Shown here: positions 11,835 through 14,688 of the stretch, one piece after another
Position numbering within the stretch: the first letter of the stretch is position 1
Layout of the letters: the number at the start of each line of letters is the position of its first letter
From: Candidatus Eiseniibacteriota bacterium
Lineage (GTDB): Bacteria > Eisenbacteria > RBG-16-71-46
Length of the DNA: 64,000 nucleotides
Direction: 5' to 3'
NCBI GenBank assembly: GCA_963717505.1
Contig: OY970342.1
Coordinates: forward strand, 2,080,001-2,144,000
Notes under the pieces: generated by a model
Seen by the model: the letters and a program-made list of their open reading frames with translations, nothing else
Told to the model about the DNA's origin: nothing
Database searches by the model: none
Program-made: the position numbers and the translations under genes

Positions 11835-11863
11835 TTGACTCGCGGGAACCCCCGGGACAGAAT
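11835..11863 (+). promoter_or_regulatory. Putative sigma70 promoter of the CM-DAHPS/cmoA/methyltransferase operon
   Basis: TTGACT 11835-11840, 17 bp, CAGAAT 11858-11863; preceded by hairpin CGTACGGG-CAAC-CCCGTGCG at about 11780-11799. Confidence 0.55.
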
Positions 11864-11927
11864 CGCCGCAGAAGCTCTTCCGGCGGCCTCGGCGGCCCAC
11901 CTGGCGGGTGCGCTGCGCACCGTCGGC

Positions 11928-13097
11928 ATGGTTCGAACCCTATCTCCAACGGCGAATGTGACTGAATCTAAGGGTGCCCCGGTATCGCTGAGCGCGCTCC
12001 GGAACGAGATCGACGATCTCAACGAGCGGATCCTCGAACTGTTGCAGTCGCGCGGCGAAATCGTGATGCGCATCGCCGAGACCAAACGCATCCACGACCT
12101 GGCCGCGTACGACCCCCGCCGCGAAGCCGAGATGTTGAACCACCTGATGCACCGGATGACCGGCGCATTCGGCCCCGATGAGATCAGGGAAGTGTTCCAG
12201 GCGATCTTCCGGGCTTCGCTCGACATCCAGGACCGCGAACGGCGCCGGGGCCTGCGCGTGTTGTCCAAAGGCATCGTCCCGCCGGGAGGGATTCGAGTCG
12301 GCAACGTCTCGGTCGGCGGTGGTGTTCCCGTGCTGTTCGCCGGGCCTTGCTCGGTCGAGACGGCGGAACAAATGGACGCCATCGCTTCGTTCCTCGCGGG
12401 GCTGCCGGTGCAGAAGATCCTGCGCGCCGGGGCATACAAGCCGCGCACCAACCCGTATTCCTTCCAGGGGCTGCGCGAGGAGGGGCTGCACATCCTGCGC
12501 GCGGCCGGCGACCGCTACGGCCTGCCAGTCGTGACCGAAGTGCTCGACACCTCGACCTTGGATGCCGTGGCGGCGTCGGCCGACATGGTGCAGATCGGCG
12601 CCCGCAACATGTACAACACCGAGCTGCTCAAGGCCGTCGGCAAGCTCGAGAAGCCGGTGCTGCTCAAGCGCGGCTTCATGGCCACGATCGAGGAGCTGCT
12701 GCTCTCGGCCGAGTACATCGTGGCCGCCGGCAACCCGGCGGTCGTCCTGTGCGAGCGCGGCATTCGCACGTTCGAGAATCAGACGCGCTTCACGCTCGAC
12801 ATTTCTGCGATACCGTTGCTCAAGCAGGAAACGGCCCTGCCGGTGATCGTGGACGTGAGCCACGCCCTGGGCCGGCGCGACATCCTGCTGCCGTGCGCCC
12901 GGGCCGCGATGGCCGCGGGGGCCGACGGCCTGATGATCGAAGCCCACGTGCAACCCGACCAGGCGCTGTCCGATGGATTCCAGCAGGTCCGCCTCGAGGA
13001 CCTCGCCGCGATCGTCGAGGGCCTAGGCTGGGAAACCGTGCCGCCGGCCTCGAGCCGAGCCGCCCGGAACGCAACCGAAACCGCCATGGTGAGGTGA
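11928..13097 (+). CDS. Bifunctional chorismate mutase (AroQ) / type Ibeta DAHP synthase
   Basis: N-terminal LRNEIDDLNERILELLQSR...K...YDPRRE; AGPCSVE, RAGAYKPRTNPYSFQGL, QIGARNM, LKRG, LCERGIRTFE, DVSH, EAH..P..ALSDG; start could be 11928 or 11958. Confidence 0.93.
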   Translation: MVRTLSPTANVTESKGAPVSLSALRNEIDDLNERILELLQSRGEIVMRIAETKRIHDLAAYDPRREAEMLNHLMHRMTGAFGPDEIREVFQAIFRASLDIQDRERRRGLRVLSKGIVPPGGIRVGNVSVGGGVPVLFAGPCSVETAEQMDAIASFLAGLPVQKILRAGAYKPRTNPYSFQGLREEGLHILRAAGDRYGLPVVTEVLDTSTLDAVAASADMVQIGARNMYNTELLKAVGKLEKPVLLKRGFMATIEELLLSAEYIVAAGNPAVVLCERGIRTFENQTRFTLDISAIPLLKQETALPVIVDVSHALGRRDILLPCARAAMAAGADGLMIEAHVQPDQALSDGFQQVRLEDLAAIVEGLGWETVPPASSRAARNATETAMVR

Positions 13098-13101
13098 CCT
13101 C

Positions 13102-13888
13102 ATGCCCAAGACCGTCGGTGACGACCGACCCTCGATCACGACCACGCCCGAGACGGCCGATCGTGATCGCCTGTTCTCCGAACAACGCCGGCGCGTCGAT
13201 GACTTCGACTTCGGCGCCAAGACGGCCAACGTGTTCGACGACATGCTCGACCGCTCGGTGCCGTTCTATCAGGAAATCCAGAGGATGGTTGCCGAGCTGG
13301 CGGTCGACTTCGCCGAGGACGGCACGTCGATCTACGACCTGGGCTGCTCGACCGGAACCAGCTTCGTCCAGATCGCCGCGGGGCTGCCGGCAGGCGTCCG
13401 CGTGAAGTTCGTCGGCCTCGATTCCTCCAAGGAAATGCTCGAGAAGGCCGAGCGCAAGTTGAAGGACCATGCGTTCGGCCATGACTACGAGCTGCGCCAC
13501 ACCGACCTGAATGCCGGCGTGTCGATCGAGAACGCGTCCGTGGTATTGCTCGTGCTCACCCTGCAATTCGTGCGGCCGCTCCAGCGCGAGCGGATCATTC
13601 GCAGTGTGTACGAGGGGCTCACCGAGAACGGCTGTCTCATCCTGGTCGAGAAAGTCCTGGGTGAGAGCTCCGACTTCAACCGATTGTTCATCAACCACTA
13701 TTACGAGATTGAAGCGGCGCAACGGGTACAGCGATCTCGAGATCGCCCAGAAGCGCGAAGCGCTCGAAAACGTGCTGGTGCCCTACCGGCTCGAAGAAAA
13801 CAAGGAACTCTTGCAACGGCGCGGATTCCAGAACGTCGACGTGTTCTTCAAGTGGTACAACTTCTGCGCGATCATCGCGAAGAAATGA
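13102..13888 (+). CDS. cmoA: Carboxy-S-adenosylmethionine synthase, apparent +1 frameshift at about 13708
   Basis: FDF....[32 protein letters not shown]; after frameshift [22 protein letters not shown] (catalytic Arg motif) and FFKWYNF. Confidence 0.9.
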
Positions 13889-14688
13889 AGACCACGTCGG
13901 GCACCCACGCCACGGGAGTTGAGCCCGGCGGTACCGCGGTTCCCGAGGCGACAACCCGCCGGTCGCTGCTGGTCAGCATCGGTCATGTGCTGTTCCACTA
14001 CCGGAACGCACTGTTCCCGGTGACGTTCCTGCTGCTGGCACTGGCCTCACGCCCGATGCTGTTGGGTGGCGACCTGCGGACGGACGCGATCCTGGACGTC
14101 GTGGGGATCGCGATCGCACTGGCCGGGCAGGGGCTGCGCGCGGCGGTCATCGGACTCGCCTACATCCGGCGCGGCGGCAAGGAAGGCCGCATCCACGCCG
14201 ACACGTTGGTGACCGAGGGCTTCTTCGCCCACTCGCGGAACCCGCTCTACCTCGGCAACATGCTCGTCTACCTCGGCCTGTTCCTGGTGCTCAACTCGGT
14301 TCTCGGCTACGCGGTGGGCGTGCCCTTCTTCCTCTTCGCGTACATCTGCATCACGCGTGCGGAGGAGGACTACCTGCGCAGCAACTTCGGAGCGACCTAC
14401 GAGGAGTACTTCCGCCGCGTCCCGCGTTTCCTGCCGAAGCTCGAGGGTCTGGGCGCCACGACGCGCGGCATGCGTTTCGACTGGAAGCGACTCCTGCGCA
14501 AGGAATACGGCTCGACCTTCTCCTGGATGACGACCATGCTCGCGCTGCTCTACTGGGAGCGGGTGCGCAACCAGGGTGTCGCGGCTTCGCAGGGCGCCCT
14601 CGGGGCGGTGCTGGTGGCCTGGGCCGTGTTGTTCGCCGGCTATCTCGTCGTGCGGTATCTCAAGAAGTCGAAGGCCCTCCAGGACTGA
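13885..14688 (+). CDS. ICMT/PEMT-family integral membrane methyltransferase (LmtA-like)
   Basis: [23 protein letters not shown]...FG..YEEY...[19 protein letters not shown] overlaps cmoA stop (ATGA). Confidence 0.88.

Follow-up and report, generated by a model that had tools for sequence, protein, structure and literature searches.

Genetic organization of the locus

The DNA analyzed here (the window) is a stretch of 64,000 nucleotides from a Candidatus Eiseniibacteriota bacterium (GenBank assembly GCA_963717505.1, contig OY970342.1, positions 2,080,001 to 2,144,000), whose genome is a single 4.16-Mb contig with a completeness estimate of 86.7%. From position 11,835 to 14,688 the window carries three genes in one orientation (Table 1), coding for a bifunctional chorismate mutase/3-deoxy-D-arabino-heptulosonate 7-phosphate synthase (CM-DAHPS), for CmoA, and for an integral-membrane protein with the fold of the isoprenylcysteine carboxyl methyltransferases (ICMT) and of PEMT. 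The three genes are treated below as a candidate module for the synthesis and use of carboxy-S-adenosylmethionine (Cx-SAM).

The layout is the one described in the original prediction, which was made from the DNA of the window alone. A gap of 4 nt (13098-13101) separates the end of the CM-DAHPS gene from the ATG of cmoA at 13102, the TGA of cmoA (13886-13888) overlaps the ATG of the membrane gene (13885-13887), and the operon ends at a convergent gene, that of an M1 aminopeptidase. The sigma-70-like promoter proposed for the operon was also recovered, as a candidate by consensus match; it is the sole promoter-like site in the scanned interval from 11600 to 14900, where 0.3 sites on average are expected from shuffled sequence. 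The first protein reaches 435.5 bits with the CM-DAHPS model NF009239 (cut-off 279), with both domains present. Its ATG at 11928 is a chosen start, and a model based on base composition sets the onset of coding near 11988. The third protein belongs to the PEMT/ICMT superfamily, as its score with PF04191 (PEMT) stands above the gathering cut-off of 25 bits.

Table 1. Features of the three-gene locus and its convergent neighbor, in window positions
Feature	Position	Strand	Support
Sigma-70-like promoter candidate, TTGACT-17 nt-CAGAAT	11835..11863	+	Consensus match, 9/12 positions
Bifunctional chorismate mutase/DAHP synthase, AroA(Q) type	11928..13097	+	NF009239, 435.5 bits
CM_2 domain (PF01817)	about 11997-12230	+	68.6 bits, positions 1-79 of 80
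DAHP_synth_1 domain (PF00793)	about 12303-13013	+	254.8 bits, positions 9-257 of 270
cmoA, N-terminal 203 codons (TIGR00740 1-180)	13102..13710	+	156.8-157.8 bits
Single extra base, ATTG	13708..13711	+	DNA of relatives, composition model, contig of run X1
cmoA, C-terminal 58 codons and stop (TIGR00740 182-239)	13712..13888	+	72.0 bits
ICMT/PEMT-fold integral-membrane transferase, LmtA-like, 267 aa	13885..14688	+	PF04191, 42.1 bits
M1 aminopeptidase	14699-17356	-	Convergent with the operon

Conservation of the cmoA-membrane gene pair

The pairing of cmoA with the membrane gene is found far beyond the window. Of 80 metagenome loci, four break off where the membrane gene starts, which leaves 76 informative loci, and in 73 of them the gene directly upstream, on the strand of the membrane gene, is cmoA. 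An intact cmoA holds the same place in 7/7 further loci, namely the six GTDB loci, from four Gemmatimonadota and two Gammaproteobacteria metagenome-assembled genomes (MAGs), and the locus of the nearest relative, G024. Among 206 sampled genomes of the phylum, with E ≤ 1e-80 as the threshold for an orthologue of the membrane protein, cmoA occurs in 11 genomes and the orthologue in 10, and the two genes are adjacent in all ten. The linkage of cmoA to a PF04191 gene, which the original prediction had asked to look for across genomes, recurs in the metagenomes (73/76), in GTDB (6/6), and in the phylum sample (10/10). In 58 complete pairs a start codon for the membrane gene is placed between -37 and +39 nt from the stop of cmoA. 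The arrangement persists where the membrane protein has fallen to 46% identity, and it spans no fewer than five named lineages (Gemmatimonadota, Gammaproteobacteria, Eiseniibacteriota, Thermoanaerobaculia, and Phycisphaerales).

Ten of the 11 cmoA-bearing genomes of the phylum have the membrane gene adjoining cmoA; the sole cmoA away from it is that of G086 (locus L135, G086:C1:4597000-4607500, at 4752-5495 of the locus). It is clustered with two dCTP-deaminase-like genes and with the genes of a B12-binding radical SAM enzyme, a carbamoyltransferase, and a TPR/AAA protein; the cluster may be a system for carboxymethyl modification of nucleotides or DNA, reminiscent of phage CmoA/CmoX.

The flanks of the pair vary between loci, and among these loci we found no generally conserved third gene. 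Envelope genes (Wzy_C, PMT_2, GT2, ABC exporter) lie nearby in some clades, none of them generally. In L093 the gene of a divergent PMT_2 (ArnT-like GT-C) glycosyltransferase adjoins the module, and in L096 the membrane gene has a similar divergent gene as its immediate neighbor, with neither a chorismate mutase nor cmoA between them. L104, L106, L118, and L123 belong to the clade in which no chorismate mutase precedes cmoA. There the gene directly downstream of the membrane gene codes for a MetE-like protein (Meth_synt_2) of 393 aa, and the one directly upstream of cmoA for a cysteine-rich protein of 140 aa with no Pfam match. G209 holds the whole module twice, the second copy (G209:C11:348951-351092) being decayed: its CM-DAHPS gene is interrupted by three in-frame TGA codons, its cmoA is partial, and its membrane gene is both partial and interrupted by one TGA. 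This copy suggests that the module was duplicated or transferred as a unit.

The linked CmoA and the search for CmoB

The linked CmoA carries the marks of its family. All 39 of the linked orthologues compared match TIGR00740 at E ≤ 1e-50, and the intact linked CmoA proteins of the genomes score between 216 and 257 bits, where the cut-off is 193.3. In each of the carrier genomes tested the linked copy is the only cmoA. In the alignment to 4GEK the equivalents of E. coli Arg199, Tyr39, Asp62, Gly64, Ser66, and Asp89 are kept and those of Asn90 and Asn132 are substituted (residues as listed in PMC3663124). Arg199 of E. coli CmoA makes a salt bridge with the carboxymethyl group (PMC3663124), and its equivalent (R215 of alignment A3) is invariant in the 39 orthologues. 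TIGR00740 being an equivalog model, the linked protein is by family assignment a true CmoA, that is, a predicted carboxy-SAM synthase.

A CmoB that could use the product of this enzyme was not found. The original prediction had seen no CmoB-like gene in the window, and the search extended this to the whole genome, to the 206 genomes of the phylum, and to five other carrier genomes. Over the 4.16-Mb genome nothing exceeds the cut-off of PF08003 (CmoB), the best score being 21.4 bits and confined to the Rossmann core; in the five other carriers the PF08003 matches are partial (18-27 bits), and in the phylum sample the best one, also partial, reaches 41 bits. The gene adjoining cmoA matches PF04191 and not PF08003. 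The pattern of a Cx-SAM cascade is thus present, with cmoA conserved beside the gene of a transferase and no other candidate user of Cx-SAM found.

A single extra base in cmoA

The original prediction overlooked a frameshift in cmoA. As assembled, the cmoA of the window is not one open frame: positions 1-180 and 182-239 of TIGR00740 are matched in successive frames, and one extra base is present at about 13709. Each half alone falls below the whole-protein cut-off of 193.3 bits (156.8 and 72.0). The first frame stays open past the break, giving a spurious fused open reading frame (ORF) of 528 aa at 13102-14688. The arginine motif QKR..LEN that had been pointed out in CmoA is indeed there, but after the break and not in the frame of the cmoA start; the C-terminal part holds [20 protein letters not shown], including the Arg199 equivalent.

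Where the window reads TACGAG-ATTG-AAG, ten relatives read TACGAG-ATG/TTG/CTC-AAG, that is, one base fewer. A frame model, which is a hidden-Markov model using only the GC content by codon position, independently switches frame at 13709/13710. The two halves of cmoA are in frame in 78/78 of the relatives' loci where both were found. In addition, a 262-nt contig from an independent public sequencing run (X1) matches 13518-13780 with two mismatches and the absence of one base at 13709; across this position the evidence is one contig at a depth of 2.1. None of the public runs holds more than 9% of the sampled words. Since the X1 contig lacks the extra base and the cmoA halves of the relatives are in frame, the break is most likely an error of sequencing or assembly and not the sign of a dead gene.

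The contrary view is that the extra base is a real mutation and that the module is dead in this genome, its locus decaying. The frame break does stand in the sequence, in G209 all three genes are present a second time in a clearly decayed state, with in-frame stops, and the distribution of the module is patchy (3/89 genomes of the family). However, the contig without the extra base is 99% identical and of independent origin, the three genes carry no other lesion, and composition by codon position is undisturbed before as well as after the break. The assembly itself is rich in unexplained frame switches, with 344 among 1790 same-strand junctions, and the count of 19-74 switches per 400 kb, to be read against a sizeable false-positive floor of 12 per 400 kb in a 99%-complete control relative, is an excess that is suggestive only. 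The housekeeping DAHP synthase of this genome is spread over three frames as well, and a completeness of just 86.7% is low for a single 4.16-Mb contig. On balance we find a dead module quite improbable and take cmoA to be an interrupted record of what is probably a working gene.

The membrane enzyme

The membrane protein resembles LmtA in its architecture. The LmtA model TIGR04571 is matched almost from end to end by 39/39 orthologues, with about 91-99 bits where scores were given: 90.8 bits for the window protein and 98.8 for the orthologue of L009, which spans model positions 11-246 of 252, including the region past the ICMT core. Assignment as an LmtA orthologue was rejected, the scores being far under the cut-off of 325. 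The same holds for protein-S-isoprenylcysteine O-methyltransferase (NF040696), for which the protein reaches 41.8 bits against a cut-off of 160, over the C-terminal 80 model residues only.

The AlphaFold2 model of the protein has a mean predicted local distance difference test (pLDDT) of 83.6 and a predicted template-modeling score (pTM) of 0.80. In a VIA-align search of 48,161 chains the top two matches are both ICMTs, 5VG9 (Z 8.9, 136 residues, root-mean-square deviation 3.4) and 4A2N (Z 8.7, 139 residues, 3.5), aligned with model residues 28-185, and sterol reductases of the ICMT fold rank next. Foldseek against the PDB gave no match at E ≤ 0.001 for this model, its top hit being again 4A2N (E = 0.21), and in the ESM Atlas the protein meets generic "methyltransferase family" clusters only. 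Model residues 196-267 form an additional conserved helical hairpin. A complex prediction for the linked CmoA and its membrane partner scored 0.00, which speaks neither for nor against binding.

The cmoA-linked proteins make up a distinct clade: orthologues are found at E ≤ 1e-80, and the next, weaker paralogues of the phylum, at E ≥ 1e-26 (between 1e-21 and 1e-26), occur in genomes without cmoA. The family is large, with 365 clusters at 50% identity reaching E ≤ 1e-30 (1.84 billion representatives), and the best 120 of 820 matches to the protein are all at least 50% identical to it. Its signature reads [12 protein letters not shown] ... [11 protein letters not shown] ... AEE.(F/Y)L...FG ... 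RKEYG ... AR.LKK. The linked clade has G-x-F-A-H-S-R-N-P where the unlinked paralogues have G-P-Y...R-H/N-P, and a Y-I-R-R-G-G-K loop that is invariant in the clade and different in those paralogues; the basic residues R85, R96, R118, R181, and K206 are invariant and K99 nearly so. In CmoB and CmoX a basic residue touches the carboxymethyl group, and mutation of Lys91 in CmoB and of Arg350 in CmoX has served to examine use of the donor. The R-N-P variant of the R-H-P motif was rejected as a marker of the subfamily, for it occurs in unlinked paralogues too. Judging by the alignment, the YIRRGGK loop is truly specific to the clade, and we hypothesize that it binds the carboxylate of the cofactor.

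The chorismate mutase of the module

In the census of upstream genes, which took in the 48 loci whose sequence extends 350 nt or more beyond the start of cmoA on its upstream side, a chorismate mutase precedes cmoA in 33. Twenty-seven of these were counted as CM-DAHPS (22 full, and five with a DAHP synthase whose chorismate mutase part is lost at a contig end), and the other six have a stand-alone CM_2 gene of 106-118 aa (57-69 bits). On the tree of the membrane proteins the states CM-DAHPS, chorismate mutase only, and neither are structured by clade, with the chorismate mutase-only loci in a single clade (support 99/97). In the phylum, a full-length CM-DAHPS of at least 65% identity lies directly upstream of cmoA in 9/9 of the other carriers. 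Outside the carriers, full-length relatives of it were found in this sample only in G206, at a contig end, and alone in G048, where an operon-type CM-DAHPS of 70% identity (L134, G048:C2:341000-351000) is followed by a convergent gene. Judging by these comparisons, the parts of the module are inherited together.

The original prediction had called for a search for a second DAHP synthase, and this genome has one, as do nearly all relatives: a DAHPS-only paralogue of 50-58% identity occurs in almost every genome, carrier or not. Therefore, the fused enzyme is an extra paralogue largely confined to the carriers of the operon. No class II DAHP synthase was found in a search of this genome. The DAHPS-only paralogue of this genome (G000:C1:3496319-3497043) is spread over three reading frames, owing either to indel errors of the assembly or to its being a real pseudogene; if it is truly a pseudogene, the CM-DAHPS of the operon would be the only working DAHP synthase of the organism.

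A direct tie between the mutase and the membrane enzyme, not foreseen in the original prediction, was also observed. Among ten long members of the membrane family that were scanned, five (P0202, P0217, P0225, P0230, and P0231) have a CM_2 domain at the C terminus, behind the membrane enzyme; the invariant motifs of the family are retained in them, and they come from five different assemblies, one of them a named Phycisphaerales MAG. A chorismate mutase tethered to the membrane enzyme is difficult to account for if prephenate, which CmoA uses as its co-substrate, has no bearing on the role of that enzyme, and we consider these fusions the strongest single item for counting the chorismate mutase as part of the module. 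Other fused forms in the membrane family (P0140, P0207, and P0268) are a protein of 507 aa with two ICMT/PEMT-type stretches and six cluster members, one of 357 aa with two PEMT-type stretches, and one of 442 aa with a C-terminal OmpA-family domain.

It could be argued that the three genes are neighbors without a shared function, the CM-DAHPS serving aromatic amino acid synthesis, cmoA an unrecognized tRNA or RNA pathway, and the methyltransferase something unrelated. CM-DAHPS is a normal type of biosynthetic enzyme, it is found in one genome where the other two genes are not, and the other DAHP synthase copy here looks broken, so that the fused enzyme may also feed amino acid synthesis. Such indifference is hard to reconcile with a gene order that persists at 46% identity of the membrane protein across at least five lineages, with the fusion of the membrane enzyme to chorismate mutase, or with the rarity of cmoA in the phylum (11/206) combined with its place beside the membrane gene in all but one case. 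We regard mere adjacency as very improbable indeed.

A putative carboxymethyl-transfer pathway

The interpretation put forward originally, a supply of prephenate, synthesis of Cx-SAM, and a membrane transferase that uses it, is favored by comparative genomics, and each of its suggested checks that was run spoke for it. We lean toward the view that the module is a carboxymethyl-transfer pathway operating with neither tRNA nor CmoB, and its membrane enzyme is probably a Cx-SAM-dependent carboxymethyltransferase. In such a pathway the CM-DAHPS, judging by its family, would raise the flux through the shikimate pathway and convert chorismate to prephenate. CmoA would then form Cx-SAM from prephenate and S-adenosylmethionine (SAM), which is the established CmoA reaction, and the translationally coupled LmtA-like enzyme would take Cx-SAM instead of SAM and, at the cytoplasmic face, hand on a carboxymethyl group (+58 Da) to an acceptor embedded in the membrane. 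A lipid species heavier by 58 Da and dependent on cmoA is what this pathway predicts.

The acceptor would most likely be an envelope lipid. Because LmtA is the closest characterized relative, our guess by analogy is lipid A 1-phosphate; the head group of a phospholipid is another guess. The LmtA-like architecture, the presence of LpxC in 5/5 carrier genomes tested, and the envelope genes near some loci are weak hints of lipid A phosphate or another envelope lipid. The chances seem to us evenly balanced for a broader proposal: that this is the first integral-membrane Cx-SAM-dependent carboxymethyltransferase, placing a carboxymethyl (glycolyl) group on lipid A 1-phosphate or a phospholipid head group as a hitherto undescribed modification of envelope lipids, and that it belongs to a portable CM(-DAHPS)-CmoA-transferase module with its own supply of prephenate, its chorismate mutase fused in some lineages to the membrane enzyme, spread over Gemmatimonadota, Gammaproteobacteria, Planctomycetota, and other soil and sediment phyla.

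Alternatively, the membrane enzyme could be an ordinary SAM-dependent methyltransferase, with Cx-SAM consumed by another enzyme. In one form of this explanation it would methyl-esterify a carboxyl group installed via Cx-SAM, as CmoM methylates 5-carboxymethoxyuridine (cmo5U); in the other it would methylate a lipid phosphate like LmtA, while Cx-SAM is used elsewhere. The chemistry of the ICMT family, which is methylation of carboxyl, phosphate, amine, or thiol groups, agrees with this explanation, as do the matches of 39/39 orthologues to the LmtA and isoprenylcysteine methyltransferase models and the fact that no Cx-SAM-specific residue could be assigned. However, a third conserved gene that could provide the user of Cx-SAM is missing from the loci, whose flanks differ, the carrier genomes are without cmoB, and both the tight coupling of the genes and the fusions of the membrane enzyme to chorismate mutase become hard to explain. 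We therefore think it unlikely that the enzyme is limited to SAM.

Several observations weigh against the carboxymethyl-transfer pathway and have to be set beside its support. LmtA is a SAM-dependent methyltransferase, so the family signal alone predicts methylation. Loop 95-113 of the membrane enzyme, with the conserved RRGGK, has a pLDDT below 50, and neither the model nor the alignment allowed us to assign a residue as binder of the extra carboxylate. The cmoA of the window is frameshifted as assembled, and at 86.7% completeness the absences in this genome are weaker than the phylum-wide result. Among the informative metagenome loci, three (L084, L096, and L124) do not have cmoA directly upstream, 15 of the 48 loci of the census have no chorismate mutase upstream, and in G048 the CM-DAHPS is present, with no cmoA or membrane gene found. 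Nor can the loci be counted as independent, as the tree has 48 different sequences in 53 rows that fall into few deep clades. The chorismate mutase domain of the Bacillus and Listeria type is also feedback-regulatory, so that fusion alone is no proof of prephenate supply. Finally, in this lineage both the use of Cx-SAM and the acceptor are inferred by comparison only.

Other features of the window

As far as they could be compared, one query having been in the wrong frame, the flanks of the orthologue of the M1 aminopeptidase in 10 relatives have nothing in common with the window, which speaks neither for nor against an insertion between conserved neighbors. Further downstream, at 31115-42133 on the plus strand, the window codes for a subtilase of giant size (3672 aa), in which a Fervidolysin-like prodomain is joined by many Ig-like domains of the HYDIN/ASH/Cep192 type and, at the C terminus, by a FlgD_ig domain; in the composition model its coding frame continues to 43181, where a possible frame break was flagged. 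On the minus strand, the region from 48371 to 62777 contains three large ORFs of 2180, 860, and 891 aa with 23, 11, and 11 divergent InlB B-repeat (Flg_new_2) domains; one of the ORFs also has a GSDH and a FlgD_ig domain. This region has a lower GC content (0.62), a strong GC skew (+0.15), and many frame switches in the composition model, and it may be one giant surface-protein gene split by assembly errors in the repeats.

Comparison with known systems

The nearest characterized systems each share one part with the module. LmtA of Leptospira, the lipid A 1-phosphate O-methyltransferase, is the best-matching characterized family for the membrane protein, which scores at 91-99 bits against the cut-off of 325, and to our knowledge no cmoA partner of LmtA has been reported. 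With Ste14/ICMT (4A2N, 5V7P, 5VG9) and PEMT the protein has in common the fold of residues 28-185 (Z 8.7-8.9) and the C-terminal cofactor-binding core, with the motifs R-H/N-P-x-Y and EE..L...FG..Y; unlike Ste14/ICMT, the clade described here has G-x-F-A-H-S-R-N-P, the invariant Y-I-R-R-G-G-K, and the extra C-terminal hairpin. The first enzyme of the module is similar over its full length to the AroA(Q) CM-DAHPS enzymes of Bacillus, Listeria (3NVT, 334 bits), and Geobacillus (5J6F, 323 bits), whereas here it is an added paralogue, replaced in one clade by a bare chorismate mutase gene. The CmoA/CmoB pair, which makes cmo5U34 in tRNA of Gram-negative bacteria, has in common with the module CmoA itself, the two-step logic, and the adjacent genes of synthase and transferase. 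In contrast to CmoB, which is a soluble Rossmann-fold enzyme, the transferase here has an integral-membrane ICMT fold and no match to PF08003. The module also brings its own chorismate mutase; we know of none within the cmoAB locus of E. coli.

Other transferases than CmoB are fed by Cx-SAM, namely TglF, MccB's C-terminal domain, and phage CmoX, and they recognize the carboxylate by Arg or Lys, according to passages of the sources (PMC10491745, PMC12783734). As far as these passages go, TglE/TglF (3-thiaglutamate), MccS/MccB C-terminal domain (microcin C-like compound), and phage CmoA/CmoX (5-carboxymethylcytosine in DNA) present, as the module does, a CmoA homologue beside a dedicated transferase that does not act on tRNA. 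TglF, the MccB domain, and CmoX are soluble class I methyltransferase folds acting on a peptide, a nucleotide conjugate, and DNA, whereas the transferase here is membrane-embedded; the same passages of PMC10491745 and PMC12783734 mention no chorismate mutase linked to these systems, whereas one is linked here. In the literature searched, with supplementary tables outside its scope, we found no paper that joins CmoA or Cx-SAM with ICMT, Ste14, membrane enzymes, or a neighboring chorismate mutase.

The known Cx-SAM pathways are few (tRNA cmo5U, one ribosomally made and post-translationally modified peptide, one microcin-like compound, and one phage DNA base), and all use soluble Rossmann-fold transferases. 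If the proposed pathway is right, carboxymethyl transfer would enter the chemistry of lipids and the envelope through a second protein fold that handles Cx-SAM. A function would be given to a family of about 365 clusters now labeled "Ste14" or "methyltransferase family protein," and it would be explained why cmoA is kept without cmoB and why chorismate mutase is fused to a protein that looks like a membrane methyltransferase. The two-enzyme Cx-SAM cascade as such is already known; new in the module would be the fold of the transferase, the class of its substrate, and the built-in supply of prephenate.

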